Of a stretch of 64,000 nucleotides of DNA, positions 38,637 through 59,796 are shown piece after piece; the first letter of the stretch is position 1; each line of letters starts with the position of its first letter. This stretch comes from Chloroflexota bacterium. Lineage in GTDB: Bacteria; Chloroflexota; Anaerolineae; Anaerolineales; VGOW01. The notes under the pieces are model-generated. The model saw only the letters and a program-made list of their open reading frames with translations, was not told the DNA's origin and ran no database searches. The stretch covers positions 71,284 to 135,283 of the forward strand of contig JACRBQ010000028.1 in the NCBI GenBank assembly GCA_016213135.1, written 5' to 3'. Position numbers and translations under genes: made by a program.

Positions 38637-38740
38637 ATACAAATAGTCCATATTATGAGGCAAGCCGCGTTTGCACTAAAGGGAGGCGCGCTACCTCAGT
38701 AGTATATTCGCATTTCCACCTACCGCTCAGGAGGCCAGCC

Positions 38741-38806: not shown

Positions 38807-38919
38807 TTCTACCCGACTCGGCAGACTAGCCCGTGAACCGTTCTCGCCCGAGTCGCCTGGCACCACAGCACGACCCGTCGTAGCGCGCCTCCCTTTGGCT
38901 CAAACTCGCACTTGAATAT

Positions 38920-40137: not shown

Positions 40138-40200
40138 ACAATGAACAATGGCGATACTTCTGACCTCTGACCTCCGACCTCTGTCCTCCGCCTTCCGAAT
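40117..40200. repeat. Heptamer tandem repeats (aatgaac x4, then tgacctc-type x5)
   Basis: aaaatga acaatga acaatga acaatga acaatgg cgatact tctgacc tctgacc tccgacc tctgtcc tccgcct tccgaat. TGA at 40121/40128/40135/40142 and ATG at 40120/40127/40134/40141/40148. Confidence 0.9.
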
Positions 40201-42028: not shown

Positions 42029-42103
42029 AGCGGGAGTCAGGAGTCAGGAGTCAGAGGTCAACATTGAGTCTTGAGCCTTGAGCCTTGTGAATTGTGCATT
42101 GTG
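42029..42103. repeat. Heptamer-periodic element carrying phased stop and start codons
   Basis: gagtcag gagtcag gagtcag aggtcaa cattgag tcttgag ccttgag ccttgtg aattgtg cattgtg. Plus-strand tca at 42037/44/51/58; TGA at 42065/72/79; GTG at 42087/94/101. Confidence 0.9.
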
Positions 42104-46220: not shown

Positions 46221-46427
46221 CTTACGTGAGCGAAGCGTTCATATCGAACCGCCGCCCAACAACAGGTTCCAGCCGACGTTGCTCCGCCGCGCTCCGACGA
46301 GCGGCTGAACCCGACCGCTATTTTTCATTGGCTGTACGAAGTGGGACATCAGCAGGGTGCTCCGTAGTTCGAAGGCGTATTCACGATAAACTTGTGTACG
46401 TACGAAATGGACGAGGAGGGGACTCCA

Positions 46428-47936: not shown

Positions 47937-48803
47937 ATGCTTGCACTCTCAGGGGGATCGAAGTCGAAACCCATCGGGCAGGTGACCCGCGGCAAAACCG
48001 CGCCCAACCGTTTGCGCCAGACGGACGTGTATCTGGCGGTGGCCCATGCGGCGCAGGTGCGCGGGGCCACGGGCGTTTGCGTGGATTTGGGCTACGGCGC
48101 GTACCCCGTCACCACGGTGGAAACGTTGCACCGCCTGCGGCGGCTCAACCCCGGCCTCCGCGTGGTGGGGGTGGAAATTGATCGCCAGCGGGTAACCGAT
48201 GCCGAACCGTACGCCGAACCGGGGCTGGAGTTTCGCTTCGGCGGCTTTAATTTGCCGCTGCTCCCCGGCGAGCGTGTGAGCTTCATTCGCGCCTTCAACG
48301 TGCTGCGGCAGTACGACGAGTCGGCGGTGGCCGAGGCGCTGGCCGCGCTGGCCGGGCCACTGACCGAGGGCGGGCTGATTATCGAAGGCACGTGCGACCC
48401 GCCGGGACGTTTGCTGACCTTCAATCTGTTTCTCAAACAGGGCGGGGCGCTGAGCCGCACGGGGTTTGTGCTGGCCCCGCGCCTCTCCGGCCTCAGCGTC
48501 GATTTTGACCCTCGCGAGTTTCGCGCCGTGCTGCCGAAAAACTTCATCCATCACGCCGAGCCGGGCGGGGCGGTTGATTGCTTTTTTGCCGCGTGGCACG
48601 CCTCGTGGCAGGCAGCCCGCGCCCTCGCCCCCGACGCGCGCGGCGTCTTTATGCAGGCGGCCCTGCGACTGGCCGATGGCTACGGCTACTCGCTGGATCG
48701 CCGCCCGGCGCTGTTGCGACGCGGGTTCCTATGCCTGGGTGCGCATGTCCTCGCCAGCCTTTCGGGGATCGTGCTCACTTCCGGCCCTAACCGTAGCCGG
48801 TAG
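47937..48803 (+). CDS. Class I SAM-dependent methyltransferase-like protein
   Basis: 288 aa; motif I-like VCVDLGYGAYP and VVGVEID. The last ~118 nt overlap the 3' end of the convergent HprK-like gene. Confidence 0.6.
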   Translation: MLALSGGSKSKPIGQVTRGKTAPNRLRQTDVYLAVAHAAQVRGATGVCVDLGYGAYPVTTVETLHRLRRLNPGLRVVGVEIDRQRVTDAEPYAEPGLEFRFGGFNLPLLPGERVSFIRAFNVLRQYDESAVAEALAALAGPLTEGGLIIEGTCDPPGRLLTFNLFLKQGGALSRTGFVLAPRLSGLSVDFDPREFRAVLPKNFIHHAEPGGAVDCFFAAWHASWQAARALAPDARGVFMQAALRLADGYGYSLDRRPALLRRGFLCLGAHVLASLSGIVLTSGPNRSR

Positions 48804-49699
48804 GCCGGGGCGGATTGCACCAGCGCATTGAGTGCGGCCAGGTGCGCCGGGATCATCGCTCGATCCCACTGCTCGATGGCATGCGGCAGGATGAGTCGCA
48901 AAGCCTCGGGCTGGCTCACCGGCTCGAGGGCATGATCCATGCGCCCTTCGATTTGCGGAAACACAATGGCAGCGGCGGGGGCGCGATCCCGCCACACGTC
49001 CGGCCACAGTCGCTCGGCGGTCACGGTGATCTTTTTTCGCTCGCCGGTTGCCAGTGCGGCAGTCGTTTCAAACCGGGCCAGCGTGTCGGGATACGCGGCC
49101 AGCAGGCCCGGGTAGCTCAGCACCTCCGCCGCGGCGGTGATGATGGGCGAATCGTTCGAGAGCAGTTTCCACCCGGCGTTGAGCAGCGCCATGCCGGTGG
49201 TCGTCTTGCCCGCGCCGATGTGCCCGACGATCAACACCGCTCCCCCTCCCCCATTCCGGTGATGTTCCGGAATGGGGGAGGGGCGGGGTGGGGGCGAGGC
49301 CGCAAAGGCGTGCAGCAAAAACATCCCGCGCCGGCGCAGGTGCGGCGACAGGCCGATGGCAATGAGGTCTTCAAACACGCCGTAGGTGTCGAGCGCGGCG
49401 GAAGTCAGTTGCCCCTCGGTGTGGCCATGGGCGCAGTCCAGCCGCAGTTGCCCGAAGCGCGGGAAGTGCGCGGTGACGCGGGCACCGTCGAGAAAGTATT
49501 GGAGCAAGTCGCCCTGCCGGAACTGCGGCTCGCGGGGCGGGGGCGGGGGAACGTGATCGGTGAGGGACAAGTGAAACGTGATCGTCGGCGGCTTGCCGTC
49601 CGCCTGCGGGCGCGAGGCAAACGATTCCACCCATCGCTCGCCGATGGCCGCCTCGTCCCACTGCCCCTCGACGACCACGCCGTGGAGGTCCCATAACAT
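48686..49699 (-). CDS. HPr-kinase-related P-loop kinase, copy 1 (HprK-related kinase of RiPP-like clusters)
   Basis: Probable start at MLWDLHGVVV... (49699); the longer track start at 49762 would overlap the PqqD gene. Core LLHAFAAS...AVLIVGHIGAGKTTTGMALLNAGWKLLSNDSPII resembles the HprK C-terminal domain. Confidence 0.75.
   Translation of the reverse strand: MLWDLHGVVVEGQWDEAAIGERWVESFASRPQADGKPPTITFHLSLTDHVPPPPPREPQFRQGDLLQYFLDGARVTAHFPRFGQLRLDCAHGHTEGQLTSAALDTYGVFEDLIAIGLSPHLRRRGMFLLHAFAASPPPRPSPIPEHHRNGGGGAVLIVGHIGAGKTTTGMALLNAGWKLLSNDSPIITAAAEVLSYPGLLAAYPDTLARFETTAALATGERKKITVTAERLWPDVWRDRAPAAAIVFPQIEGRMDHALEPVSQPEALRLILPHAIEQWDRAMIPAHLAALNALVQSAPAYRLRLGPEVSTIPERLARTCAPRHRNPRRNSAGRRSSE
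49242..49283. repeat. 17-bp perfect palindrome inserted in-frame in the HprK-like gene
   Basis: CCCCTCCCCCATTCCGG (49243-49259), 7-nt loop, CCGGAATGGGGGAGGGG (49267-49283). It encodes ...PPPRPSPIPEHHRNGGGG... just upstream of the P-loop. Confidence 0.85.
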
Positions 49700-49734
49700 G
49701 GCCGCGAGTATATCACGCAGAGAGTCTTCAAAAA

Positions 49735-50034
49735 ATGGCCGTACCGAAATCTGAGGACACATTGGACGCCGAGACCGTACTCCGCCGCTCGCCCCAGAGC
49801 ACCTTTCAAGTCGTGGCCGACGAGGCCATTCTCATCCACCTTGGCACCGGCACGTACTTTTCGCTCAACCGTGTGGGCACGGAATTTTGGCAGATGCTCG
49901 ACGGCCAAGGCACCATCGGCGGACATGCCGAAACCCTCGCCCAAAAATACAGTGTGGACGTTTCGATTGTCACCGCGGACTTGCTGGAGTTGGCCGGAAA
50001 GATGGCCGCGGACAAACTTGTCGATGAACTCTGA
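49735..50034 (+). CDS. PqqD-family RiPP recognition element protein (lasso B1-like)
   Basis: 99 aa; VVADEAILIHLGTGTYFSLNRVGTEFWQMLDGQGTIGGHAETLAQKYSVDVSIVTADLLELAGKM matches the PqqD/RRE pattern. Confidence 0.85.
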   Translation: MAVPKSEDTLDAETVLRRSPQSTFQVVADEAILIHLGTGTYFSLNRVGTEFWQMLDGQGTIGGHAETLAQKYSVDVSIVTADLLELAGKMAADKLVDEL

Positions 50035-50509
50035 AGCTCCCCCATCGGCCGGGCGCGCCCGCCACTGGGCGTTGGCTCTCTCCCTCGCGCCGGGCCTGGC
50101 CCTCAGCCCGCGCCGCCGCGCGCTGTTGCGCGACATGCGCGCCTTTTGCCGCGCCCTGCCGCACGCCCTCGTGAACCCGCTGCCGGAAGCCATGCACAAC
50201 ATCACCCCCGCCGCGCCCGCGCCCGCCGACCTCGATCTCATCCGCAACCTGGCCGACCTCGCCGCGCTGCTGGAGCGCCGCTCGCCGCTGGGATTGTGCC
50301 TGCGGCGCTCGCTCACCCGTTATCACTTTTTGCGCCGCGCCGGGCTGCCTGTGGCCGTGCAGTTCGGGGCGCGGTTCGTCGGCGGCCGGCCCGACCGCGA
50401 CATCACCGGCCATGCCTGGCTCACGTTGCGCGACGCGCCCTACCACGAGTCCGGCGAGGACTGGCAGGGCTTTGCGATCATGTATTCCTATCCACCCACG
50501 GAGGCTTGA
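50024..50509 (+). CDS. Lasso-peptide B2-type transglutaminase-like cysteine protease
   Basis: ATG 50024 overlaps the PqqD stop. GLCLRRSLTRYHFLRRAGLPVAVQFG...ITGHAWLTL gives the Cys and His of the B2 catalytic set. Confidence 0.8.
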   Translation: MNSEAPPSAGRARHWALALSLAPGLALSPRRRALLRDMRAFCRALPHALVNPLPEAMHNITPAAPAPADLDLIRNLADLAALLERRSPLGLCLRRSLTRYHFLRRAGLPVAVQFGARFVGGRPDRDITGHAWLTLRDAPYHESGEDWQGFAIMYSYPPTEA

Positions 50510-50511
50510 AG

Positions 50512-51051
50512 ATGATGAACAGACTCATTGCGATCGCGCTCGCTGCGATTCTACTCCTGACCGCCTGTGGCGCGCCTACCCCGCCGCCACCCACTGTGTT
50601 CCCCACCCTGCCGCCGCCCGCAGCCGCGACTGTTCAACCGCCCACCGCCCCGGTGCCGCCGCCCACCCGCACAGCCGCCCCGGCCACTGCCGTGGTGGAG
50701 ACTCCGTACGAAGTCGCCACTGCCGCCCCTACCGTGGCGTCCCCGACCACCGCGCCGCCCACCGCCTCCGTCGTATACATGACGCTTCAGGATTTTGTCA
50801 TCGTGCCGGACACCCTCACTGTCCCCGTCGGCGCCAAAGTGATCTTTTTGATCAAGAGCGCCCCGGGCGGCTTTCATCAACCATATTCCTCCTTCCCCGA
50901 CAACTTCAATGAGTCCGGACTGTTCTCTGCGCCGAGCGGCCTCGGCGACGGAACGAGCTACGCCTACACGTTCACCACAGCCGGCACGTACACCGTGCGC
51001 TGCGGCTATCACCCCGCCGCGATGGTCGCCACCATCACCGTGACCCCGTAG
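50512..51051 (+). CDS. Cupredoxin lipoprotein with a Pro/Thr/Ala-rich linker, embedded in the RiPP-like operon
   Basis: MMNRLIAIALAAILLLTACG (lipobox), PT-rich linker, cupredoxin core ending YTVRCGYHPAAMVATITVTP (C-x2-H-x3-M). Starts 3 nt after the B2 stop; its stop lies 2 nt before the AsnB ATG. Confidence 0.75.
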   Translation: MMNRLIAIALAAILLLTACGAPTPPPPTVFPTLPPPAAATVQPPTAPVPPPTRTAAPATAVVETPYEVATAAPTVASPTTAPPTASVVYMTLQDFVIVPDTLTVPVGAKVIFLIKSAPGGFHQPYSSFPDNFNESGLFSAPSGLGDGTSYAYTFTTAGTYTVRCGYHPAAMVATITVTP

Positions 51052-51052
51052 C

Positions 51053-52906
51053 ATGTGCGGTATCGTGGGCCTCGCGGCCCCGGATGCTTCCGCCGACACC
51101 CTCGGCCCGCTCAACGACCTCCTCGCCCATCGCGGCCCGGACGACTCGGGCGTGTACGGGGGTGAGGGCCTGGCGCTGGCCGCGCGCCGCCTGAGCATCA
51201 TCGACCTCGAGGCCGGGCATCAGCCTCTCAGCAACGAAGACGGCACGGTGTGGCTGGTTTACAACGGCGAGGTCTACAATGCGCCCGCGCTCCGCGCCCA
51301 ACTCGAAGCCGCCGGGCATCGCTTCGCCACCCACACCGACACCGAGACCATCGTCCACGCCTACGAGCAATGGGGCCGCGCCGCCGTGGCTCGCCTGCGC
51401 GGCATGTTCGCCTTCGCCCTGTGGGACGCACCGCGCCGCCGGTTGCTCCTTGCCCGTGACCGCTTCGGCGTGAAGCCGCTGTATTACGCACAGGCGGGCA
51501 ATCGCTTCGCCTTCGCCTCCGAAGTGCGCCCCGTGCTGAGCGCGCTGCCCCAGCTCTCGCGCTGTGCCAGCCTGCCCGCTTTGCATCACCTCTTCAGCCT
51601 CGGCTTCATCCCCTCGCCGCTCACCGCCTTCGACGGCGTATTCAAGCTGCCCGCCGCGCACACACTCGTGTTGGAGAACGGCCAACTCACGCTCGAATGC
51701 TATTGGCAATTGCGTTACCCGCCCGACGGCGGGCACCGGCGTATCGGTCTCGACGAGGCCTCCGAGCAGTTTGTCGCCGCGCTGCGCGACGCCGTGGCCG
51801 CGTGGCGGCTCAGCGACGTGCCCGTCGGTTCACTCCTCAGCGGCGGCGTGGACTCGGCCTCGCTCGCCGCGCTGCTGGCCGAGATCACCGGCGGGCAGAT
51901 TCACACCTTCACCATCGGCTTCACCGCCGCCTCGCACGACGAATCCGCGCTTGCCCGCGAAGCCGCCCGCGCCATCGGCAGCCACCATCACGAACTCACT
52001 TTCTCCGCCGCCGACTTCGAGTTACTGCCGCACGTCGTCCGCCGCCTCGAAGAGCCGCAGTGCTCGGCCACCAGCGTGCCCATCTTTCTGCTTTATCGCG
52101 CCTGCCGCGAGGCGGGCTTCAAAGTGATCATGACCGGCGAGGGCGCCGACGAACTGCTGGGCGGCTATCACTGGTTCGATGGCGACCGCCGCGTGCGGCC
52201 TCTGTTACGGTTGCCGCAATTCATCCGGGGGATAATGGCCCGTGCCCCCGTGACCGCCTCCGACGCGGCCCGGCGCGTCCTGGCCCGTGGCGGCGCTGAC
52301 CCGGTGGCGCGTTATGCCCTGTGGCAACAGGTCGCCGGCCTGACCGAACTCGCCGCCCTCACCCCCAGCCCCTCTCCCTTGGGGAGAGGGGAGTTGAGGC
52401 TCCCTCTCCCTTTGGGAGAGGGTTGGGGTGAGGGTTGGCATCCCCTCGACCAATTCCTCTACCTCGAATCGCAAACGCGCATGATCGACTTCATCAACTT
52501 CGAAGTGGATCGCATGAGCATGGCGAACTCCGTCGAGGCCCGCCCGCCGTTTCTCGATCATCACCTGTGGGAGTTGTGCGCCGCGCTGCCGCCGGACTGC
52601 AAACTGAGTCCCAACGGCAACAAACTGCTGTTGCGCCTCGGCATGAAAGGCAAACTGCCGCCCGCCGTGCTCGGTCAGCCCAAACGCGGCCTCGCCGCGC
52701 CCCATGCCGCGTGGCTTCGCGCCGAGCGCCTGCCCCCGTGGGCCGAGGAGGCCCTGCACCCCTCGGCCCTCGCCCAAACCGGTTACTTCCAACCCGCCGA
52801 AGTGTCCCGCCTACGCGCTGCTCACCAGTCCGCCCGCGCCGACCACTCTCGCCTGCTCATGGGCATCCTCACGACCCAACTCTGGCATTCCGAATTCCTC
52901 CTCTGA
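51053..52906 (+). CDS. Asparagine synthetase B-type (glutamine-hydrolysing) enzyme; positional equivalent of the lasso cyclase
   Basis: 617 aa; N-terminal MCGIVG (Ntn Cys2 intact), PP-loop SGGVDSAS, C-terminal RMSMANSVEARPPFLD. Confidence 0.85.
   Translation: MCGIVGLAAPDASADTLGPLNDLLAHRGPDDSGVYGGEGLALAARRLSIIDLEAGHQPLSNEDGTVWLVYNGEVYNAPALRAQLEAAGHRFATHTDTETIVHAYEQWGRAAVARLRGMFAFALWDAPRRRLLLARDRFGVKPLYYAQAGNRFAFASEVRPVLSALPQLSRCASLPALHHLFSLGFIPSPLTAFDGVFKLPAAHTLVLENGQLTLECYWQLRYPPDGGHRRIGLDEASEQFVAALRDAVAAWRLSDVPVGSLLSGGVDSASLAALLAEITGGQIHTFTIGFTAASHDESALAREAARAIGSHHHELTFSAADFELLPHVVRRLEEPQCSATSVPIFLLYRACREAGFKVIMTGEGADELLGGYHWFDGDRRVRPLLRLPQFIRGIMARAPVTASDAARRVLARGGADPVARYALWQQVAGLTELAALTPSPSPLGRGELRLPLPLGEGWGEGWHPLDQFLYLESQTRMIDFINFEVDRMSMANSVEARPPFLDHHLWELCAALPPDCKLSPNGNKLLLRLGMKGKLPPAVLGQPKRGLAAPHAAWLRAERLPPWAEEALHPSALAQTGYFQPAEVSRLRAAHQSARADHSRLLMGILTTQLWHSEFLL
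52369..52422. repeat. Two tandem G/C-rich palindromes inserted in-frame in the AsnB-type gene
   Basis: CCCCTCTCCC-ttg-GGGAGAGGGG (52369-52391) and CTCCCTCTCCC-ttt-GGGAGAGGG (52400-52422). They encode PSPSPLGRGELRLPLPLGEGWGEGW. Confidence 0.85.
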
Positions 52907-52969
52907 CCATTTCGCCTCCCACCTCTCACCTCCCACTTCCCACTTCCCACTTCCCACCTCTCCTCCCCC
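52907..52969. repeat. Heptamer-periodic intergenic element (tcccact type)
   Basis: tcccacc tctcacc tcccact tcccact tcccact tcccacc tctcctc, between the AsnB-type and EEP genes. Confidence 0.85.
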
Positions 52970-53749
52970 ATGCGCCTCCTCACTTACAACCTCTACTTCG
53001 GCGGCGCCGACCGGGCCGAGCAAATTCTTGCGGTGCTGACTCACGCCAACGCCGACGTGATTGCCCTCACCGAGGCGGACGACCGGGCCGTGGTGGAGAT
53101 GCTCGCTGCGCGGTTGGGCATGGTTCACCAGTGGGCGCGAGGCAGCGGCGATCGACACATTGCCACCCTCTCCCGCTTCCCCATCGTGGATTGGCATATC
53201 TACAACAGGCCGCCCCTCAGCCAAGCCGCGCTGGAAACAACGCTGGAAATCCGGCCGTCGCCGATCGGGTCGGAGGTTGGAGGGGTGGGGGTCACAATTT
53301 ATAACGTGCATCTTCTCCCTTACCTCTTCCTCCCGTTCGAGCTGCGCCGCTGGCAAGCCGTAGGCTGTCTGCTGCAAATCATCCGCCAGCAGCCATCGGG
53401 GCCGCACCTGCTCGTGGGCGACTTCAACGCCATTGCCCCCGGCGACCGTGTGCTGCAACACCTCCACCCGCCGCGCATGAGGCGGCAGCAGGCGCTGCAA
53501 TTCAACATCATCTTCCGGTTGGCCCTTCGCCGCCTCCTCAGCGCCGGGTACACCGATTGCTTCCGTGCCCTGCACCCCGCCGACGACGGCTTTACGTGGA
53601 TGCCCCCCAGGCCGAGCACCCGCTACGACTACATCCTCGCCGACCCCACCCTGGCCCGCGCCCTCACCGCCTGCCGGGTCGTCGACGACCTGCCAGCCAT
53701 CGCCACCGCCTCCGACCACTTGCCGCTGATGGCTGACTTTGAGTTTTGA
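52970..53749 (+). CDS. Endonuclease/exonuclease/phosphatase (EEP) family protein
   Basis: 259 aa; MRLLTYNLYFGG...ALTE...GDFN...SDHLPL pattern of the EEP fold. Confidence 0.8.
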   Translation: MRLLTYNLYFGGADRAEQILAVLTHANADVIALTEADDRAVVEMLAARLGMVHQWARGSGDRHIATLSRFPIVDWHIYNRPPLSQAALETTLEIRPSPIGSEVGGVGVTIYNVHLLPYLFLPFELRRWQAVGCLLQIIRQQPSGPHLLVGDFNAIAPGDRVLQHLHPPRMRRQQALQFNIIFRLALRRLLSAGYTDCFRALHPADDGFTWMPPRPSTRYDYILADPTLARALTACRVVDDLPAIATASDHLPLMADFEF

Positions 53750-53759
53750 ATGTTGAGTG

Positions 53760-53773
53760 TTGAGTTTTGAATT
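53760..53773. repeat. Left 14-bp terminal inverted repeat of the four-helix-bundle cassette
   Basis: TTGAGTTTTGAATT is the exact reverse complement of 54152-54165. Part of heptamer array 53741-53775 (gagtttt gaatgtt gagtgtt gagtttt gaattc). Confidence 0.85.
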
Positions 53774-53793
53774 CTCACGAAGGAGTCTTGCCT

Positions 53794-54153
53794 GTGAGCG
53801 AAAGCATTGTTCAGAAGAAGAGTTTTGAGTTTTCGTTGGAAATTATTGCGCTTTATCGAGTGCTTCAGGGAAAGCGCGAATATGTAATTTCCAAACAGTT
53901 GCTGCGCAGCGGCACAAGCATTGGGGCCAATGTGGAGGAGGCATCGGCGGGGCAGAGCAAAAAGGATTTTCTCTCAAAGATGTCGGTAGCTTCCAAAGAA
54001 GCCAGAGAAACGAAATACTGGCTGCGCCTGCTTCAAGAGTCGAAAATCGTTGATATGGATGTCGCCACTGAGCTTTCTCACGTCGAGGAGCTGATCCGTA
54101 TCCTCACTGCCATAGTCAAAACCACCGGCGCCCAACTTCGCCCCAATTCATAA
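53794..54153 (+). CDS. Four-helix-bundle protein (23S rRNA intervening-sequence protein family)
   Basis: Probable GTG start at 53794, after GAAGGAG (VSESIVQKKSFEFSLEIIALYRVL...SKQLLRSGTSIGANVEEA...KDFLSKMSVASKEARETKYWLRLL). GC content is clearly lower than the flanking genes. Confidence 0.8.
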   Translation: MSESIVQKKSFEFSLEIIALYRVLQGKREYVISKQLLRSGTSIGANVEEASAGQSKKDFLSKMSVASKEARETKYWLRLLQESKIVDMDVATELSHVEELIRILTAIVKTTGAQLRPNS

Positions 54154-54165
54154 TTCAAAACTCAA
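54152..54165. repeat. Right 14-bp terminal inverted repeat of the four-helix-bundle cassette
   Basis: AATTCAAAACTCAA; part of heptamer array 54147-54177 (aattcaa aactcaa aactcaa aacttca). Confidence 0.85.
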
Positions 54166-54178
54166 AACTCAAAACTTC

Positions 54179-55177
54179 ATGCAGCACCCAACTCCTCCTC
54201 AAGATTTTTGGTCCCGGCAAGCGAATGCTCAAAGCCACTCATTGGCGTTCGCCCCGCTGGGCACGCCCGCCGCAATCACCGCCAACGATCCGGCCGTCCT
54301 CGCCGCCGCCCGGCTCTCGGCGGGGCGTTACAGCCGCGCCCCCAACGTCGGTGGCCGGCCCATCCGTGTCAGCATCGTCGTCGGCGCGCAAGCCACCGCG
54401 CCCGTGCCGCCCGACCTGCCCGACCGGTTGGTTTACGCCGGGTTGGGTCATTGGCTCACCGTTTCCGCCGGCGAATGGGGACACGGCTTTGCCAACCGCC
54501 AGACGCGCCAGGCCTTCGTCTTCCTCTCCCCGGCCCTCGCCGCCGAGCCGTTGCTGGTCAGCCGCTACTTTGTGGATCATTATCTGCTCAACCTGCTAAT
54601 GACCGAGTGGGCCATGCTTCACGCCTCGTGCGTGGTTGATGCTGCCGGGCGACTCATCCTCATGGTCGCCTCGCACAACACCGGCAAATCCACCACCGCC
54701 CTGCGGCTCATGCGCGCCGGGCACACCTTCCTCGCCGACGGCATGGCGTTGCTCAAAGCCGACGGGCCTGGCCTGCTCGTCGGCGGCTACCCCATCGGCG
54801 AAGTGAAATTGCGCGACGACGTGCTGGCTCTGTTTCCGGAATACACCGGCGACGCCGTGCAAGTTCGCGAGCATCGCAAAACAGTGGTAAATTTGCGGGC
54901 CGCGCACCCGGCGCAAGTGGCCGAGTCCGTATTCACGCCCGCTGCCGTGCGGCTGCTGTTGGTGGAGCAGGGGGCCGCCACCGCTGCCGAGCCGTTGACC
55001 GACCGCGCGCAGATGCTCGCCGCCATTGCGCCGAACACGGTGTTTTGGGACGAGCCTGTCGCGCTCGAACACAACACGGCCATTCTCAATCGTTTGTTGG
55101 ATGCGGCTCGCGCTTACCGCTTCACCCTCGGCCCCGACCCGGCTCAGATCATTTCCGCGATGGAGGCATTGGAATGA
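54179..55177 (+). CDS. HPr-kinase-related P-loop kinase, copy 2
   Basis: 332 aa; LHASCVVDAAGRLILMVASHNTGKSTTALRLMRAGHTFLADGMALL resembles the HprK C-terminal domain (compare HGV..V.G.GVLI.G.SG.GKSE.AL.L...GH.LVADD). Confidence 0.75.
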   Translation: MQHPTPPQDFWSRQANAQSHSLAFAPLGTPAAITANDPAVLAAARLSAGRYSRAPNVGGRPIRVSIVVGAQATAPVPPDLPDRLVYAGLGHWLTVSAGEWGHGFANRQTRQAFVFLSPALAAEPLLVSRYFVDHYLLNLLMTEWAMLHASCVVDAAGRLILMVASHNTGKSTTALRLMRAGHTFLADGMALLKADGPGLLVGGYPIGEVKLRDDVLALFPEYTGDAVQVREHRKTVVNLRAAHPAQVAESVFTPAAVRLLLVEQGAATAAEPLTDRAQMLAAIAPNTVFWDEPVALEHNTAILNRLLDAARAYRFTLGPDPAQIISAMEALE

Positions 55178-56322
55178 AACGCACCTTGATCGTGATCATA
55201 GCCTTCGCTATGGCCGCCTGTTCCTCCCCGGCGCCAACCTTGCCTCCCCTGCCCACCCTGCCGCCGGGGGCCACCGCCGCCCCGGCCACCGAGCCAGTTG
55301 CCCCGGCGGAAACGGCGACTCCGCCGCCCGTCACCGCCACTGCGGCCCCCACCGCCACTCCCGCCTCCGACGCGGTGCCGTGTCCCCTCACCGACCTGCC
55401 CGTGTCGCAGTCCGTGCTGCAATCGCGCCGCCCGCTGCTGGTGCAAATCGGCAACTCAGGCCCCGAGCGCCCGCAGTTCGGGCTGGCCCAGGCCGACCTC
55501 GTGTTTGAGACCATTGCCGAGGGCGGCATCACCCGCTTCTCGGCCATCTACTTTTGCCAGGATGCCACCGACATTGCCGGGGTGCGCTCCGGCCGGTTGA
55601 TTGACCTTCAGCTTCTGCCCATCTTCGACGCCGTTTTTGTGCACGTGGGGGCGAGCGAGCAAGTGCAGGCGCTGTTTGAAAACGATAGACACATCCGCGA
55701 CACCAGCCTCGACTTCTTTCGCAGTCACCCCGGCTTCACCCTGCAACCGGATCGCCGCCGCGCCCCGTTCGACGTGTTCACCAGCACCGAAGCGCTGTAC
55801 AATGCCGCGCGCCGGCGGGCCATTCCGGTTCCGGGCGACCGGCCCGTGCCGCAGTTGAACTTTGCCGCTGCTCCGCCTGCCGGGGGAACGCCCGTCGCCT
55901 CCGTCACCGTGCGGCACCACTCGAGCTATTGGGTGCGCTGGAAGTGGGATGCCGCTGCCAATGTGTGGGGGCGACACCTCACCAGCGAAACGGCCCCGGC
56001 CAACGACACCCCCCACGTGGACGCGGCCACCGGGCGCATCCTCACCGCTGCCAACGTGCTCATCGTTCAGGCGCCGCACGAGCAGACGGACATCATTGAA
56101 GACAGCCTGAACTCGCGCTCGATGCAAGTGAACCTCATCGGCAGCGGCGCGGCCACACTGCTGCGCGACGGGCAACTGTTCACCGGCTCGTGGAAGCGCG
56201 AGGCCCTCACCGACTGGTTCACCCTCACGCTGGCCGACGGCTCGCCGATGACTCTGCATCCGGGAAACACGTTTGTGCATTTCTATCCGACTACGTTTAA
56301 GCTGGATGCGGCTCAACCATGA
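55174..56322 (+). CDS. DUF3048-domain lipoprotein
   Basis: ATG 55174 overlaps the upstream stop (ATGA). MKRTLIVIIAFAMAACSS lipobox, PT/A-rich linker, then CPLTDLP...RRPLLVQIGNSGPERPQFGLAQADLVFETIAEGGITRFSAIY. Confidence 0.75.
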   Translation: MKRTLIVIIAFAMAACSSPAPTLPPLPTLPPGATAAPATEPVAPAETATPPPVTATAAPTATPASDAVPCPLTDLPVSQSVLQSRRPLLVQIGNSGPERPQFGLAQADLVFETIAEGGITRFSAIYFCQDATDIAGVRSGRLIDLQLLPIFDAVFVHVGASEQVQALFENDRHIRDTSLDFFRSHPGFTLQPDRRRAPFDVFTSTEALYNAARRRAIPVPGDRPVPQLNFAAAPPAGGTPVASVTVRHHSSYWVRWKWDAAANVWGRHLTSETAPANDTPHVDAATGRILTAANVLIVQAPHEQTDIIEDSLNSRSMQVNLIGSGAATLLRDGQLFTGSWKREALTDWFTLTLADGSPMTLHPGNTFVHFYPTTFKLDAAQP

Positions 56323-57128
56323 CCCGCACCCTCGACACCCTCCGCGCTTTCACCGAACGCGGCTTCCGGCTGGCGGCCAGTTACCGGCTGACCTTCGTGG
56401 GCACTTACCTCGGCGGGGCGATGACCGTGGTGTTCTTTGGCGCGCTGCAAAGTCTGGTGGGCAAGCGTGTGCCCTCGGTGGCGGCCTATGGCGACTACTT
56501 CACCTATCTGCTCATCGGCGGCATCTTCGCCCGTTACCTGTCGTTTGGCATGAGGCACTTTGGCCGCGAACTGGAACAGGAAATGCTGGCCGGGACGCTG
56601 GAGCCGATGCTCGTCACCCGCACTCCGTCTCCGCTCATTCTGCTGGGGCCGTCGCTGTGGGTGGCCGTGGAAGGGCTGCTGGTGATGGCGCTGCAATTCA
56701 TCGTCGGCGTGACGTTTTTTGTGACCGACTTTTCGCGCGCCAACTGGCCCTCGGCCCTCGTCGTCGGGGCGCTGGCGTTGGTGGCTCTCAGCTTTTGGGG
56801 AGTGCTGGCGGCGGCGTTCATGCTGCTGTTCAAACGCGCCGACCCGCTGAGCTGGTTTGTGGACTTCACTATTTTTCTGCTGGCGGGCGTGTACTTCCCG
56901 GTCGCCATTTTGCCGCTGTGGCTCAAAGCCATCGCCTATCTTTTGCCCTTGAGCTACACCTTGGACGCCGTGCGGCTGGCGCTCATGCGCGGTCAATCGG
57001 TCACCGACCTGGGCGGCTACGTGGGCATTCTGTTGCTGTTCAATGCGTTGCTGATTCCGGGCGGGTTGCTGGCCTTTCGCGCTGCGCTGCGGCACGTCAA
57101 GCAAACCGGATCGTTGGGCCATTACTAA
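56319..57128 (+). CDS. ABC-2-type transporter permease (no cognate ATPase gene adjacent)
   Basis: 269 aa; 6 predicted TM helices. 4-nt overlap with the upstream gene. ABC-2 style N-terminus (LRAFTERGFRLAASYRLTFV). Confidence 0.7.
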   Translation: MTRTLDTLRAFTERGFRLAASYRLTFVGTYLGGAMTVVFFGALQSLVGKRVPSVAAYGDYFTYLLIGGIFARYLSFGMRHFGRELEQEMLAGTLEPMLVTRTPSPLILLGPSLWVAVEGLLVMALQFIVGVTFFVTDFSRANWPSALVVGALALVALSFWGVLAAAFMLLFKRADPLSWFVDFTIFLLAGVYFPVAILPLWLKAIAYLLPLSYTLDAVRLALMRGQSVTDLGGYVGILLLFNALLIPGGLLAFRAALRHVKQTGSLGHY

Positions 57129-57134
57129 TCACCC

Positions 57135-58316
57135 ATGTTTCCCGATCTCGTCCGTTCCCTCCGCCTTGACGCGCCGGCGTTTGAACCGGCCCCCGGCGCC
57201 GACTGGGCCGCACTGCTGGATCAGGCTGACGCGCACTCGCTGACGCCGTTGTTGCATGCGTTGGGGCGGGAGTTGGGGTGGCTGCGTATGCTTCCAACGG
57301 AAGCGGCTAGTCGGATGGCGAAAGCGTTTGGCGACAATGCGCGTAGGCAGATCAACGTGCGCGCCGAGTTGCTGGAGATCGACTCGATCCTCACCGAGGC
57401 CTGTGTCCCTCACATTGTGCTGAAGGGCTGGCCGGTAGTGGAGCGGCTATACGCCAACCCGGCGCAGCGCGTAATGTACGACCACGATTTTTTGCTTCCG
57501 GCGGAGGCGGCGCAGGCCGGGCACGCGGCGCTGAAGGCGGCGGGGTTCGGGCCGGTGCCCGTTAAGGATGCCTGGGTGGAAAAGCATTTGCCCGCACTGT
57601 GGCGCAACGAGGGCTATGTGTGGGATGGCTATCTGTTCGATCCCGACTACCCGCGCCCGGTGGAACTGCACGTGCAGTTGTGGGACACGGGCTGGCGCGG
57701 GTTGCGGGTGGGCCCGTTGCCCGACGTGTGGAGCGCCTCGCCAACCCGAACCGTGGCCGGGCGGCCCATGCGTGTGCTGTCCGACGCCGACAACATCATT
57801 CATCTGGCGATGCACTTCGCCGGGCACTGGGTGGAGCGCGAGGCGCGGCTGAATCAATTGCTGGATGTGGCCCGCTGGCTGGCGCTGCCGGAGGCGCGGG
57901 GCGAGGCCTTTTGGCAGGCGGTGGCGGCGCGCGCCTCTGCCGCCGGGGTGGGGCGGTTTGTGTATGCCTCGGTATGGCTGGCGGGCGAGGTGTTCGGCGC
58001 GCCTCTGCCGCCCGCCGCGCCGTGGCAGCAGCTGGCCCGGGCCACGCCGCCCAGGTTGCGCGCCTGGCTGGCGGCCCACGGCGTGGCGGATGCCTTGGAA
58101 TCCAACTATCGCCGCCGCAACCTGCGCACCGGCTACGAGTTGACTTTTTTGGCCGCCGCTTCGCCGGCAGAACGGCTGGGTATTCTGCGTTTTGCCGCCT
58201 TCCCGAATTTGGCGCATCTTATGGCAAAATATGGGCTACACTCTCGTTGCCAGGCGGTGCTATATTATCCCCGCTACGTGGCCGAGCGCATGGGTAGGGT
58301 GACGGCGAAATTCTGA
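57135..58316 (+). CDS. Uncharacterised nucleotidyltransferase family protein (NTP_transf_5-like), copy 2
   Basis: 393 aa; VLKGWPVVERLYANPAQRVMYDHDFLL, VELHVQLW, IHLAMHFAGH; paralog of 38965..40137. Confidence 0.7.
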   Translation: MFPDLVRSLRLDAPAFEPAPGADWAALLDQADAHSLTPLLHALGRELGWLRMLPTEAASRMAKAFGDNARRQINVRAELLEIDSILTEACVPHIVLKGWPVVERLYANPAQRVMYDHDFLLPAEAAQAGHAALKAAGFGPVPVKDAWVEKHLPALWRNEGYVWDGYLFDPDYPRPVELHVQLWDTGWRGLRVGPLPDVWSASPTRTVAGRPMRVLSDADNIIHLAMHFAGHWVEREARLNQLLDVARWLALPEARGEAFWQAVAARASAAGVGRFVYASVWLAGEVFGAPLPPAAPWQQLARATPPRLRAWLAAHGVADALESNYRRRNLRTGYELTFLAAASPAERLGILRFAAFPNLAHLMAKYGLHSRCQAVLYYPRYVAERMGRVTAKF

Positions 58317-58326
58317 TTGAGGGGCG

Positions 58327-59796
58327 ATGAAGCGAACCAGCACTATTCTGATAGCCGACGACGAACCCGATGGCCGTGAGGTGATGGCGGCTTTGCTCCG
58401 CTCATCCGACTACGAAATGGTGTTCGCCGGGGACGGGCAGGAAGTATTGGATCAGGCCAAAGCCGTTCAGCCGGACCTGATATTGCTGGATGTGATGATG
58501 CCGGTGATGGACGGGTTTGAAGTGTGCCGCCGCCTGCGCGCCGACCCCGTTCTGGCCGAAGTGCCGGTGATTATCGTCACCGCCCTCGGCGACCAACAGG
58601 CCCGCATCAAGGGCATCGAGGTGGGCGCAGACGATTTCATCAGCAAGCCCTATAACCGCCTCGAACTGCGGGCGCGGGTCAAGGCCGTCACCCGCCTCAA
58701 CCGCTTTCGCCGCCTGCAACTCGAACGGGCCAAGTTCGAATGGGTGGTGGAGCAGGCCGACGACGGCTACGTGATCCTCAACGGCCAGGACGCTTTTGTG
58801 TATGCCAACCCGCAGGCCCGGCTCTATTTGGACTTGCCCGATGGCAGCGATCTGGCCGAAGGCGACCTCAAGTTTATTCAGACGGTCAAAGGCCACTACC
58901 GCCTCGAACCCATGGAAGCCTGGGTGACGTGGCCCGACGAAATACCCCCCAACGCCGCCACTCCGCCGCGCTACCTTGTGCGCCCCGAAACCGCCATCGC
59001 CGACGCCCGCTGGCTGCAAGTGAAAGTGCTGGAGACGGCCATCGGGGCCGAGCCGGGGCGCATCGTCCGCCTGCGCGACATCAGCACACAGGTCAAATCG
59101 CGCAACGACGTTTGGACGTTCCACAACTCGGTATCCCACAAACTGCGCACTTCGCCCGCCGTGATGACCAGCAGCCTGCAACTGCTGGAGATGCACATTG
59201 ACCAGCTTTCCAAGGAAGAGATCAAGGCCTTCGCCGACAACGCCCTCAAGGGCGCAAAGCGGCTGCGCGATGAAATAGAAGACGTCGTCCAATTTCTCAA
59301 CGTGCGCACGCTGGCCCGCCCCGGCGAGGGCTTCGCCCTCGAGGCCTTGGCTCCACTGGTGAAGGAGGTGGCCGCTGAGATGGGGGAGATGAGCGTCGCC
59401 ATATCCGTTGCGCCTGAACTGGCGCAGGCGCGGCTGGCGCTTTCGCACCAGGCCACGGAAATCCTGTTGCGCGAATTGCTGGAAAACGCAAAGAAATTCC
59501 ACCCGCGCCATCGCCCCACGGTGGAAGTCTCCGTCAAACAAGGGCCGGGCAGGACCGTCAGTCTGCGTGTTTCCGACAACGGCCTCACCCTCTCGGGGGA
59601 ACAACTGGCCAAAGTGTGGACGCCTTACTATCAGATAGAAAAACACTTCACCGGCGAGGCCCCGGGCATGGGCCTCGGGCTGGCCTCGGTGGCGTTCCTC
59701 ATCGGCGGGGTAGGGGGCACGTCGCGCATGACCAACCGCCCCGACGGGCCGGGCATCACCGTCGAGCTGATTGTGCCGCTGGCCTGGGCGGCCTGA
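58327..59796 (+). CDS. Hybrid protein: N-terminal receiver domain, central sensory region, C-terminal histidine kinase core
   Basis: 489 aa; REC (ILIADDEPDG, DLILLDVMMPVMDG, SKP). H-box-like SVSHKLRTSP; N box LLENAKKF; G boxes DNGLTL and GMGLGLA. Confidence 0.8.
   Translation: MKRTSTILIADDEPDGREVMAALLRSSDYEMVFAGDGQEVLDQAKAVQPDLILLDVMMPVMDGFEVCRRLRADPVLAEVPVIIVTALGDQQARIKGIEVGADDFISKPYNRLELRARVKAVTRLNRFRRLQLERAKFEWVVEQADDGYVILNGQDAFVYANPQARLYLDLPDGSDLAEGDLKFIQTVKGHYRLEPMEAWVTWPDEIPPNAATPPRYLVRPETAIADARWLQVKVLETAIGAEPGRIVRLRDISTQVKSRNDVWTFHNSVSHKLRTSPAVMTSSLQLLEMHIDQLSKEEIKAFADNALKGAKRLRDEIEDVVQFLNVRTLARPGEGFALEALAPLVKEVAAEMGEMSVAISVAPELAQARLALSHQATEILLRELLENAKKFHPRHRPTVEVSVKQGPGRTVSLRVSDNGLTLSGEQLAKVWTPYYQIEKHFTGEAPGMGLGLASVAFLIGGVGGTSRMTNRPDGPGITVELIVPLAWAA

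Follow-up and report, generated by a model that had tools for sequence, protein, structure and literature searches.

A candidate maturation module for a tiny, almost invariant ribosomal peptide within a larger Chloroflexota gene system

In the stretch of Chloroflexota DNA analysed here (the window, 64,000 nucleotides), the operon at 48.7-58.3 kb is best read, with a probability of roughly 0.55, as the maturation module of a larger Chloroflexota system that makes a small product from a ribosomal peptide. The larger system spans ~38670 to 63985, and the operon (48686-58316), as one part of it, probably feeds a new small peptide-derived molecule into the cell-envelope sugar machinery. It would be a case in which the proteins that recognise and cut the leaders of lasso peptides are turned to a tiny, almost invariant peptide. 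The system is conserved across many Chloroflexota, and no account of it was found in Pfam, NCBIfam, Rfam or the searchable literature. The initial annotation, whose interpretation is partly supported, had called the operon a RiPP-like locus, and the lasso B1 (PqqD) and B2 pair with an AsnB-type enzyme bears this out. Its gene calls agree with our domain assignments, which were made by Pfam/NCBIfam profile searches (weakly so for the kinases), and the start and stop codons at every listed junction (50024/50034 and the others) are as it gave them. The genes of its interval are real, but the interval was too narrow, as the DUF5693, FGE-like, B12-rSAM and two downstream GT2 genes belong to the system as well. 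The features are as follows.

38741..38806, + strand: precursor peptide gene, MYEKPEITKHDDLSQITFSSH, 21 aa, adjoining the second NTP_transf_5 gene (N2)
38965..40137, + strand: NTP_transf_5 nucleotidyltransferase-fold enzyme N2 (Pfam E 4.8e-44; DxD motif RPMSDIDL)
40148..42028, + strand: DUF5693 membrane protein (N-terminal TM helix, TIM-barrel-like domain, C-terminal helix bundle)
42071..42931, + strand: FGE-sulfatase-fold protein (closest to SUMF2, CalU17 and the EgtB C-domain)
46392..47924, + strand: B12-binding radical SAM enzyme (closest curated family RiPP rSAM ApyD, below cut-off)
48686..49699, - strand: HprK-like P-loop kinase 1 (GAGKTT ... SND; weak HprK-like match, E 7e-6)
49735..50034, + strand: PqqD-family RRE, B1-like and leader-binding (Pfam PqqD 53.5 bits)
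50024..50509, + strand: B2-type transglutaminase-fold Cys protease (Transglut_core3)
50512..51051, + strand: cupredoxin lipoprotein (Copper-bind C-terminus, lipobox LLTAC, C-x2-H-x4-M copper loop)
51053..52906, + strand: glutamine-dependent AsnB-type amidotransferase (Asn_synthase plus GATase; Cys2, SGGVDS; starts MCGIVG)
52970..53749, + strand: EEP-family phosphoesterase (EEP domain), always paired with kinase 2
53767..54153, + strand: four-helix-bundle / 23S_rRNA_IVP (23S rRNA IVS protein family) gene, with imperfect inverted repeats of 41 nt on either side
54179..55177, + strand: HprK/PEPCK-fold kinase 2 (weak HprK-like match, E 4e-6; H148, GKS and D187 invariant)
55174..56322, + strand: DUF3048 (YerB-like) lipoprotein (DUF3048 N- and C-terminal domains)
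56319..57128, + strand: ABC-2 permease (ABC2_membrane)
57135..58316, + strand: NTP_transf_5 enzyme N1, a paralogue of N2 (E 7e-43)
58327..59796, + strand: hybrid response-regulator / histidine kinase, tightly spaced (partial domain-level matches only in other loci)
59806..61002, + strand: membrane GT2 glycosyltransferase (closest curated families MftF, PgaC and NodC, all below cut-off)
60995..63985, + strand: GT2 + PMT_2 (GT-C) + TPR fusion protein (domain profiles)

Although the initial annotation had placed no precursor gene in or next to the operon and had brought in the peptide encoded at 38741 only for an expression comparison, this peptide is the precursor, and compact orthologous clusters hold its gene together with the operon genes in a single block. 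AGGAGG stands 7 nt 5' of its ATG, and an SD-like motif precedes 82 of the 84 distinct peptide genes. The family is 21-23 residues long, almost invariant and often present in tandem copies; 92 genes from 70 sources reduce to 84 different DNA sequences, which encode 48 distinct peptides, and a single identical peptide is encoded by 14 different DNA sequences. Among the 84 gene copies, Y-17, K-15, P-14, L-6, F-1, S+1 and H+3 are invariant, position -12 is always Ile, Leu, Met or Val, and Thr-2 is kept in 83/84, an invariance that is owed in part to the search patterns used. The leader in the window (residues 1-18) has Tyr-17, Pro-14, Ile-12, Thr-2 and Phe-1, and Y-17/P-14/L-12/T-2 is the published B1/B2 recognition register of lasso leaders (PMC10368454). 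This register leaves three residues, so we infer that the core is only Ser-Ser-His after a full lasso-type leader; across variants it reads S-(S/A/M)-H. The NCBIfam lasso leader models were matched by one peptide variant (E 0.02-0.04, below threshold). Conservation at leader positions -10, -9, -6, -4, -3 and -1 far exceeds what ordinary lasso leaders show, and the "leader" may therefore itself be the functional part or may also be modified.

Several features of the comparative data indicate that the peptide and the operon genes very probably form one system. First, comparison of neighbourhoods for a co-conserved small ORF, as the initial annotation had suggested, brought out this peptide as the sole conserved small ORF in >12 compact clusters. 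Second, its orthologues adjoin NTP_transf_5 genes in ~160 loci, and when metagenomes were searched with a pattern from the peptide alone, 91 loci were obtained, and N2 (D126 and D128 invariant) stood next to the peptide in nearly all of those with sufficient flanking sequence. Third, a compact cluster on contig Ga0247727_10001623 holds, in this order, the peptide, N2, DUF5693, NUDIX, FGE-like, rSAM, minus-strand kinase 1, PqqD, B2, AsnB, EEP, kinase 2 and DUF3048 genes, and a matching block recurs in L125, L127 and L165 as well as in L011, L014, L021, L024, L032, L048 and L075. The co-inherited set is thereby shown to comprise the peptide gene, both NTP_transf_5 genes, DUF5693, FGE-like, B12-rSAM, both kinases, PqqD, B2, AsnB, EEP and GT2/PMT_2/ABC-2. 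In the long loci of the 21-aa clade, DUF5693 is found in 25/25 and the FGE-like gene in 22/25; in compact clusters the place between the FGE-like gene and kinase 1 is taken by B12-rSAM orthologues of 75-86% identity, and kinase 1 is always divergent from PqqD. No FGE-type Cys pair was seen in the C-terminal region of the FGE-like protein, and the model of the DUF5693 protein (pLDDT 79.8) gave only weak TIM-barrel or glycosidase matches. These data from related loci tie 38670-42931 and 46392-47924 to the system, and tight gene spacing runs on past 58316 (58327-59796, 59806-61002, 60995-63985), where membership of the hybrid response-regulator / histidine kinase is uncertain.

Lasso PqqD models head the NCBIfam matches of the PqqD protein, though below cut-off, and B2 passes the lasso B2 model NF033537 (34.4 bits, cut-off 33). 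GLCLRRSL is present in 13/14 B2 sequences (GICLRRSL in L049) and the GHAW His in 13/13 full-length ones; with its catalytic Cys and His kept, B2 is a predicted active protease. As PqqD, such a B2 and an Asn-synthase homologue make up the lasso core set, and known lasso peptides are decorated by HprK-like kinases and NTP_transf_5 enzymes (PMC8498205, PMC6993621), the locus could be an ordinary (phosphorylated) lasso cluster with a conventional precursor elsewhere in the genome and an unrelated Ser-Ser-His peptide. We consider this very improbable, since the peptide of the compact clusters has the exact lasso leader register, and no other YxxPxL small ORF was found near the operon. In addition, AsnB was rejected as a lasso cyclase: it scores 224 bits on the lasso-cyclase model against a cut-off of 525 (453 on asn_synth_AEB, cut-off 267), and its orthologues start MCG(I/V) and keep the glutaminase Cys2 in 10/10, as the initial annotation had observed for the enzyme in the window. 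Among solved structures, it comes closest to a hydroxyamidotransferase and to E. coli AsnB. Some precursors, for example that of L067 (MYKKPQIKKHPKLTQVTFSSH), whose cluster has kinase 1, PqqD, B2 and AsnB, contain neither Asp nor Glu, which makes an isopeptide impossible. As the modifiable end is only Ser-Ser-His, the product is very probably not a lasso, judging from these sequences, and the departure from the conventional lasso template that had been noted earlier stands. Compared with lasso systems, this one shares the leader-recognition and leader-cutting proteins, whereas its inferred core has three residues and its AsnB keeps Cys2.

The maturation reading is also consistent with the decorating enzymes. 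Enzymes like the HprK-like kinases and NTP_transf_5 proteins of this locus carry out the phosphorylation and phospho-glycosylation of paeninodin and pseudomycoidin, a likeness that the initial annotation had rightly drawn, and there is precedent for kinase and nucleotidyltransferase roles (PMC8498205, PMC6993621, PMC10368454). The kinases were assigned from weak sequence scores together with a predicted fold: the kinase 2 AlphaFold model (pLDDT 92.5) matches PEPCK and HprK/P folds, and its family profile matches the HprK/P structure 1jb1 (E 0.0017). Both pairs that had been called duplicates are real paralogues, and at 30% identity over 177 aa for the kinases and 28% over 313 aa for N1 and N2 they are old ones, not recent duplicates. 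In both L003 and L005, EEP and kinase 2 have an N1 orthologue (55-59% identity) linked to them.

A second alternative is a cofactor of the mycofactocin/PQQ kind, in which the C-terminal residues are remodelled by the rSAM and FGE-like proteins, cut off and glycosylated by the MftF-like GT2, giving a redox or metal-binding factor used at the membrane or intracellularly. Like PqqA and MftA, the peptide is very short, nearly invariant and often in tandem copies; an RRE, an rSAM, a peptidase and a GT2 (121 bits on MftF, below cut-off) are present, the core has a His, and some clusters have a cupredoxin lipoprotein. However, the rSAM is of the B12 type, usually a methylase, and not a SPASM cross-linker, the kinases, nucleotidyltransferases, EEP and export/envelope genes have no counterpart in the PQQ or mycofactocin pathways, and no partner oxidoreductases are evident, so we regard a cofactor as unlikely, at about one chance in five.

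The envelope genes bring in a third alternative, slightly less probable again, of envelope-polysaccharide modification like that of HPr-rel-A / exosortase-associated neighbourhoods, with a glycan or lipid substrate and the peptide gene as a regulator or an unrelated, merely co-located gene. The strongest partial match of AsnB is the XrtA/PEP-CTERM EPS amidotransferase model, and it could have a non-peptide substrate. GT2, PMT_2-TPR, DUF5693, Polysacc_synt flippase, ABC-2 and lipoprotein genes are tightly associated; membrane GT2 homologues adjoin the peptide and N2 in many loci, and ABC-2 permease homologues (41-45% identity) are found in 11/25 peptide loci. The permease was correctly described as ATPase-less, as the window contains no LSGGQ-type ABC ATPase. 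In the 23-aa clade, the peptide gene has PMT_2-TPR and GT2 homologues on its flanks, and in 11 long loci not even an HMM search detects a PqqD, B2 or kinase gene within +/-10 kb; for this reason, B1/B2 processing is either not universal or encoded elsewhere in that clade. One of its genomes has EEP, kinase 2 and N1 ~100 kb away from the peptide, and loci with these three genes also hold TylF methyltransferase, NTP_transf_3 and GT2. Against this alternative, to our knowledge PqqD and B2 have no roles other than leader-peptide binding and cutting, the peptide bears their recognition motif in the right register, and its gene adjoins N2 almost throughout. The HPr-rel-A membership suggested in the initial annotation did not hold, as the kinases reach 25-26 bits on TIGR04352/TIGR04355, where the cut-off is 200, and the NCBIfam matches include no HPr-rel-A PqqD model.

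Reading every enzymatic step from family membership, we propose for the maturation module that PqqD would bind the YxxPx(I/L) leader and present the peptide, and that the HprK-like kinases would phosphorylate Ser+1 (and Ser+2) with the leader still attached, as in paeninodin and BsfA; by analogy, we give Ser phosphorylation an even chance. The NTP_transf_5 enzymes may then extend the phosphate or hydroxyl by another group, in the manner of PsmN, and EEP may trim phosphodiesters. AsnB might amidate the C-terminal His carboxylate, the only carboxylate universally present, a step that we think somewhat less likely than not, and the B12-rSAM probably C-methylates. Cleavage by B2 after Phe-1, which we favour slightly, would free a decorated Ser-Ser-His-derived molecule, and the membrane GT2/GT-C, DUF5693, ABC-2 permease and lipoproteins could glycosylate or export it or build it into the envelope. 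In keeping with such an envelope link, the peptide and N2 of other clades have GT2, PMT_2-TPR, DUF5693, Polysacc_synt flippase and ABC-2 genes beside them.

Of the genes that had been described as coupled into the operon, the cupredoxin is accessory (4 distinct related contigs, a minority of loci), and DUF3048 was seen in only one contig besides that of the window; in L001 an orthologue follows kinase 2. The four-helix-bundle gene, already set apart as a cassette, is a local insertion outside the system: L001, L003 and L005 lack it, and there EEP directly adjoins kinase 2 or is parted from it by a PhyH gene alone.

The peptide cistron is also bracketed by a covarying 25-bp long-range helix.

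38670..38694, + strand: 5' arm of the conserved long-range helix, TTTGCACTAAAGGGAGGCGCGCTAC, upstream of the precursor gene
38880..38904, + strand: 3' arm of the conserved long-range helix, GTAGCGCGCCTCCCTTTGGCTCAAA

Between these arms 90.8% of cells are paired, compared with 37-52% when the partner is slid, and compensatory changes occur in 20/25 helix pairs.

The operon at 48.7-58.3 kb is half of a larger system. The initial annotation had described a RiPP-like operon there, and ORF listing together with profile searches placed every gene that it named at its reported position, with start and stop codons at all of the reported junctions. The right boundary was drawn too narrowly, since close spacing runs on to 63985. 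The features considered here, with protein genes assigned by profile searches, are as follows.

38670-38694 and 38880-38904: arms of a long-range helix, bracketing the SD and the whole peptide ORF
38741-38806, + strand: precursor peptide MYEKPEITKHDDLSQITFSSH, with AGGAGG 7 nt upstream of the ATG; in every locus a matching small ORF lies immediately 5' of the NTP_transf_5 orthologue
38965-40137: NTP_transf_5 enzyme N2
48686-49699, - strand: HprK-like kinase 1
49735-50034, + strand: PqqD-family RRE (B1)
50024-50509, + strand: B2-type transglutaminase-fold protein
50512-51051, + strand: cupredoxin lipoprotein
51053-52906, + strand: AsnB-type enzyme
52970-53749, + strand: EEP phosphoesterase
53767-54153, + strand: four-helix-bundle protein (23S rRNA IVS-protein family)
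54179-55177, + strand: HprK-like kinase 2
55174-56322, + strand: DUF3048 lipoprotein
56319-57128, + strand: ABC-2 permease
57135-58316, + strand: NTP_transf_5 enzyme N1
58327-59796, + strand: hybrid response regulator/kinase, continuing the close spacing
59806-61002, + strand: GT2, continuing the close spacing
60995-63985, + strand: GT2-PMT_2-TPR fusion, continuing the close spacing

Homologues of kinase 2 with 55-67% identity are numerous in Chloroflexota metagenomes. A related metagenome contig, Ga0247727_10001623, contiguously carries NTP_transf_5, DUF5693, NUDIX, FGE-like and B12-type radical SAM (rSAM) genes and, on the opposite strand, kinase 1, followed by PqqD, B2, AsnB, EEP, kinase 2 and DUF3048, and the window matches it in gene set and order apart from an insertion at ~43-46 kb and that of the four-helix-bundle gene. 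Scanning one genome per species with an NTP_transf_5 alignment gave 80 loci, ~70 from Chloroflexota (record titles include Anaerolineae, Promineifilaceae, Ardenticatenaceae, Caldilineaceae, Leptofilum and Trichofilum) and one from Vicinamibacterales, and only five of these Chloroflexota and Vicinamibacterales loci, each ending at a contig edge, lack the peptide gene. In a separate metagenome scan, a degenerate DNA pattern derived from the peptide alone gave 91 loci; NTP_transf_5 adjoins the peptide in nearly all of those with flanking sequence, and full compact clusters were found again (L125, L127 and L165). The comparison of neighbourhoods thereby yielded a conserved gene block with a co-conserved small ORF, the peptide. 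As in RiPP systems, the gene for a precursor that carries a recognition sequence shares one conserved neighbourhood with those for an RRE, a leader peptidase and tailoring enzymes. We put the probability that this is one co-inherited gene set that includes the peptide at about 0.9. A promoter and terminator scan gave counts at chance level; one promoter-like site was seen at 38629-38656, ~85 nt upstream of the peptide ATG.

The earlier statement that no precursor lies in or next to the operon stands for 48.6-51.1 kb, where no small ORF carries the leader motif, but a precursor is encoded at 38741 within the same gene set. A precursor inside the flagged interval was also sought by a regex scan for YxKPx[ILVMF] small ORFs in kinase-2-centred loci, which gave none because those loci stop short of the peptide. 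The 92 peptide genes from 70 sources represent 84 distinct DNA sequences and 48 distinct peptides of three lengths (MY.KP..., 21 aa; MKY.KP..., 22 aa; MK(K/T)Y.KP..., 23 aa). An SD-like motif precedes 82 of the 84 distinct genes, the gene is frequently present in two tandem copies, and one identical peptide is encoded by fourteen different DNA sequences, which shows that selection acts on the protein. No curated Pfam or NCBIfam family covers the peptide, and a sub-threshold match to the NCBIfam lasso-leader models was obtained with one variant only.

Residues of the precursor peptides, aligned at the C-terminus (leader, negative positions; core, +1 to +3). The search patterns allowed alternatives at several positions and fixed others, so that the invariance of P-14, F-1 and H+3 is partly by construction.
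Invariant in the leader: Tyr-17, Lys-15, Pro-14, Leu-6 and Phe-1
Invariant in the core: Ser+1 and His+3
Position -12: Ile, Leu, Met or Val
Position -2: Thr, 83/84
Position +2: ~90% Ser, the remainder Ala apart from one Met

The recognition register of lasso B1/B2 proteins consists of Tyr-17/Pro-14/Leu-12 and Thr-2 (PMC10368454, citing Sumida 2019 and Chekan 2019). The same register is found in Y2, P5, I7 and T17 of the 21-aa peptide, and the pattern occurs in 83-84 of the 84 distinct genes. Transferred to the peptide, it would place cleavage between Phe18 and Ser19, with residues 1-18 (MYEKPEITKHDDLSQITF) as the putative leader and a three-residue core, S-(S/A/M)-H; by this analogy, cleavage after Phe-1 is somewhat favoured.

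Profile scores uphold the initial assignment of both PqqD (Pfam PqqD, 53.5 bits against a cut-off of 23.4) and B2 (NCBIfam lasso B2 NF033537, 34.4 bits against 33). The best NCBIfam matches of the PqqD protein are lasso PqqD models, below the cut-off (32.7/80). Of 14 B2 orthologue sequences, 13 have the motif GLCLRRSL (the related locus L049 has GICLRRSL), and none of the 13 full-length ones lacks the GHAW His; with these residues kept the protease looks active.

Rule-based genome mining would presumably label PqqD, B2 and Asn_synthase together as a lasso cluster, and the leader register and the B1/B2 pair would agree with a lasso product. The third enzyme and the core speak against it. The AsnB-type enzyme passes the genuine asparagine-synthase model (453 bits, cut-off 267) and fails the lasso-cyclase model NF033535 (223.8, cut-off 525). 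It keeps the glutaminase nucleophile, as had been noted initially: the protein starts MCGIVG, and the Ntn glutaminase Cys2 is present in 10/10 orthologues, whereas a lasso cyclase is an Asn-synthase homologue without glutamine use. A lasso core has ~14 aa or more with Asp/Glu at 7-9, and with a core of 3 aa a 7-9-membered isopeptide ring cannot form. The precursor of the related locus L067, MYKKPQIKKHPKLTQVTFSSH, is without Asp or Glu, and its cluster has kinase 1, PqqD, B2 and AsnB. The short core, the acid-free L067 precursor, the lasso-cyclase failure and the retained Cys2 led us to reject a lasso peptide, and judged from sequence the product is very probably something else. The lasso label would then be wrong for this gene set, in which the same parts accompany a non-cyclisable three-residue core.

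The nearest solved relatives of the AsnB-type enzyme are a hydroxyamidotransferase and E. coli AsnB, and the NAGGN amidotransferase model TIGR03104 gives a strong partial match (375 bits, below its cut-off). All precursors share no carboxylate other than that of the C-terminus, so that its amidation is the simplest role for the enzyme, and we propose this role tentatively. AsnB-type C-terminal amidation has precedents in TsrC (thiostrepton) and AsnO (N-acetylglutaminylglutamine amide, NAGGN), which like the window enzyme are full-length glutamine-dependent AsnB homologues; the window enzyme is orthologous to neither, and we infer its activity. Inside the AsnB gene, at 52367-52444, lie two in-frame G+C-rich palindromes, CCCCTCTCCC..GGGAGAGGGG, encoding SPSPLGRGELRLPLPLGEGWGEGW, in a loop whose length and sequence differ from one orthologue to another. 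This element occurs once in the window and may be a REP-like element tolerated within the coding region.

Sequence matches of the two HprK-like proteins are weak (E about 1e-5 to 1e-6), and the assignment of kinase 2 gains backing from a match of its family profile to the HprK/P structure 1jb1 (E 0.0017) and from the AlphaFold model of kinase 2 (pLDDT 92.5), whose predicted fold matches PEPCK and HprK/P (common P-loop fold). In comparison with the lasso-kinase motif listed in PMC10368454, kinase 2 keeps H148, G169-K170-S171 and D187, and kinase 1 has GAGKTT and SND. Kinase and NTP_transf_5 are each duplicated, as proposed initially, and the low identity within the pairs (30% between the kinases, 28% between N1 and N2) marks them by sequence as ancient paralogues. 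Both N1 and N2 keep the DxD motif, and N2 has a weak MdcG-like Pfam match. PsmN, an 'uncharacterised nucleotidyltransferase', is needed to add hexose to the phospho-Ser of pseudomycoidin and is inactive when the pair equivalent to the DxD motif is mutated (PMC6993621).

Directly upstream of the N2 start (38965), a strong 12-bp hairpin, CCTCCGAGTGTC...GACACTCGGAGG, lies at 38920-38953 and was seen in the window and the close relative L150 only; its 3' arm holds the GGAGG nearest the N2 start and so could damp N2 translation. In five loci from Deltaproteobacteria, Methanosarcina, KSB1, Acidobacteriota and Syntrophaceae (L081, L083, L085, L086 and L088), HMM search found a PqqD-family gene near a distant NTP_transf_5 gene (26-31% identity). 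The partnership of NTP_transf_5 with an RRE thus reaches well beyond Chloroflexota and beyond known lasso clusters. The SSH-type peptide was not seen in the distant NTP_transf_5 loci of other phyla.

Compared with the clusters for phosphorylated or phospho-glycosylated lasso peptides (paeninodin pade, pseudomycoidin psm and Bradymonas bsf), the present system has several common features: split B1 (PqqD) and B2, an AsnB-family enzyme and an ABC-type export gene, and also the leader register Tyr-17/Pro-14/Leu-12/Thr-2, an HprK-like kinase, which there acts on Ser of the linear precursor, and a PsmN-type 'uncharacterised nucleotidyltransferase', which there is phosphate-dependent (PMC8498205, PMC6993621, PMC10368454). 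In contrast, the core comprises 3 residues, where those clusters have about 15-25, and lacks an Asp/Glu acceptor (some precursors are without any acidic residue); the AsnB homologue is a complete glutamine amidotransferase and not a cyclase; kinases and NTP_transf_5 enzymes each number two to three; genes for B12-rSAM, FGE-like, EEP, DUF5693 and GT2/GT-C proteins are added; and the peptide is near-invariant across families instead of hypervariable.

The mycofactocin and PQQ pathways likewise have a short, highly conserved and sometimes multicopy precursor, a PqqD-type RRE, a radical SAM enzyme and a dedicated peptidase releasing a two- or three-residue product, and MftF of mycofactocin is the closest curated family of the GT2. 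However, the GT2 reaches 120.8 bits on the MftF model (cut-off 280), no other NCBIfam Mft model matched and orthologues of MftA/B/C/D/E/F are not indicated. The peptidase is B2 and not MftE/PqqF, the radical SAM enzyme is of the B12 and not the SPASM type, the RRE family differs, and phosphorylation and nucleotidyl-transfer chemistry and an envelope/export component are found here.

The NCBIfam HPr-rel-A system also combines HprK-related kinases, a PqqD-family protein and a nucleotidyltransferase, and the initial annotation had named it. Membership did not hold up: the kinases score 25.3, 26.1 and 22.1 bits on TIGR04352/TIGR04355, far under the cut-off of 200, and the five NCBIfam matches of the PqqD protein include none of the HPr-rel-A PqqD type. 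A literature search gave nothing relevant on the peptide (TFSSH), PF14907/DUF5693 in this context or HPr-rel-A/TIGR04352. We class the system among RiPP pathways, as one that has taken over the B1/B2 module of lasso peptides but fails on the defining lasso features (core and cyclase).

The gene content differs between the clades named by peptide length, which were tabulated from 25 loci of 15 kb or more (21 aa) and 11 loci (23 aa).

Presence of genes in the 21-aa and 23-aa clades (loci).
N2: 25/25; 11/11
DUF5693: 25/25; 9/11
FGE-like: 22/25; 2/11
rSAM: 13/25; 0/11
kinase 1/PqqD/B2: 9/25; 0/11
AsnB: 7/25; 0/11
ABC-2: 11/25; 0/11
GT2 (59806-61002 type): 5/25; 6/11

HMM searches, too, detected no kinase, PqqD or B2 in the 11 loci of the 23-aa clade. 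In one genome of this clade, orthologues of EEP, kinase 2 and N1 (57-67% identity) lie ~100 kb from the peptide locus, which indicates that the system can be dispersed. The conserved operon of the 23-aa clade consists of PMT_2-TPR, peptide, NTP_transf_5, GT2, GT2, an 880-aa polytopic protein, DUF5693 and a Polysacc_synt flippase, and homologues of the window GT2 (59806-61002), GT2-PMT_2-TPR and ABC-2 adjoin the peptide and NTP_transf_5 in many genomes. The window lacks an ABC ATPase signature, in line with the initial description of a permease without ATPase. In the DUF5693 model, a TM helix at the N-terminus is followed by a TIM-barrel-like domain and a membrane bundle of helices; its structural matches were not significant.

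The peptide cistron is enclosed by a long-range RNA helix, whose arms are also found in L007, L009, L011, L053, L055, L094, L125 and other related loci. Two conserved 8-nt cores, AGGCGCGC on the upstream side and GCGCGCCT on the downstream side, served as independent anchors of the register, and for pair counting both arms from each of 48 distinct loci were joined via an artificial GAAA loop. Over the 25-bp helix, 90.8% of cells are paired, compared with 37-52% when the partner is slid; compensatory changes occur in 20 of the 25 pairs, and double-change cells number 273 against 99 +/- 11 in shuffles, none of 500 shuffles reaching the observed count. In other clades, the arms are unrelated in sequence yet complementary, and where the peptide gene is duplicated the 3' arm comes after the second copy, enclosing both tandem copies. 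RNAduplex energies discriminated poorly between true and mismatched upstream/downstream flanks because long sequences always find long duplexes, and a longest-exact-match comparison and the core-anchored pair counts were used in their place. Rfam gave nothing near the gathering threshold around the peptide gene, and a test of the 70 nt that follow the peptide stop showed that a local hairpin or attenuator is not general there (median z -1.0; z < -2 in only 24% of sequences). The 25-bp duplex is a plausible RNase III substrate, and the helix may serve excision or stabilisation of the precursor mRNA or be a dosage element; it may be a general means of controlling precursor dosage.

In the mechanism that we propose, PqqD would present the peptide and the kinases would phosphorylate Ser+1 and Ser+2 of the linear precursor, a step to which we give, by analogy, an even chance. 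The NTP_transf_5 enzymes may extend the phosphate or link Ser directly by a phosphodiester, EEP may edit phosphodiesters, AsnB would amidate the C-terminus, rSAM would methylate, and B2 would free the tripeptide so decorated. Glycosylation, export or installation of the product could fall to GT2, GT-C, DUF5693, ABC-2 and the lipoproteins. The near-invariant peptide and its tandem copies resemble PqqA/MftA more than antibiotics, which suggests that the product serves the cell's own physiology, as an envelope component, cofactor or signal, and is not a diversifying antibiotic.

A more specific and rather improbable proposal is that the Ser-Ser-His end is activated like choline or glycerol for teichoic acids, making a ribosomal peptide a stoichiometric building block of an envelope polymer in filamentous Chloroflexota. 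Here, the kinase would give phospho-Ser and NTP_transf_5 an NDP-linked peptide, the amidated, methylated phospho-tripeptide would be moved onto a glycan or lipid from the GT2/GT-C/DUF5693/flippase genes, and the covarying mRNA helix would secure a high precursor supply. If the RiPP pathway is as proposed, lasso leader recognition would extend to small-molecule-type RiPPs, and a defined substrate would become available for NTP_transf_5 (PsmN-like), HprK-like peptide kinases and DUF5693, all of them families that are little understood. The system is present in ~70 Chloroflexota species representatives, activated-sludge filament genera (Promineifilaceae, Leptofilum and Trichofilum) among them.

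Several further genes lie in or beside the locus. The four-helix-bundle gene stands between 41-nt imperfect inverted repeats (53738-53782 and 54136-54176) of TTGAGTT-like heptamers and splits the EEP-kinase 2 junction, which is closed in the related loci L001 and L003; this resembles the insertion of a small cassette. At ~43000-46300, alpha/beta hydrolase, SRPBCC and adenylate/guanylate-cyclase genes, with G+C dipping to 0.54, part FGE-like from B12-rSAM, which are adjacent in compact orthologous clusters, and this block is probably an insertion unrelated to the system. The FGE-like protein was rejected as a true formylglycine enzyme: it best resembles SUMF2, CalU17 and the EgtB C-domain, and no C-terminal Cys pair was seen by eye. 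Between rSAM and kinase 1, a 288-aa ORF (47937-48803) without Pfam or NCBIfam match overlaps the kinase 1 3' end convergently by 118 nt and has a VCVDLGYG motif that recalls SAM-methyltransferase motif I; its homologue was found in L014 only, and it is therefore not a conserved member. Two loci of other Anaerolineales (L003 and L005) combine EEP, kinase 2 and N1 orthologues with a TylF-type O-methyltransferase, a 540-aa NTP_transf_3 protein, GT2, a PhyH dioxygenase and two family-less proteins (~190 aa; 546-604 aa), which hints at a methylated sugar or sugar-nucleotide part of the product. In the window (36252-38481) and in L007 (6912-8609), where an ECF sigma factor gene is nearby, the peptide locus is directly preceded by genes for DUF4097 ('toastrack') and DUF6249 membrane proteins; their position may reflect a link to envelope stress or simply the synteny of related genomes.
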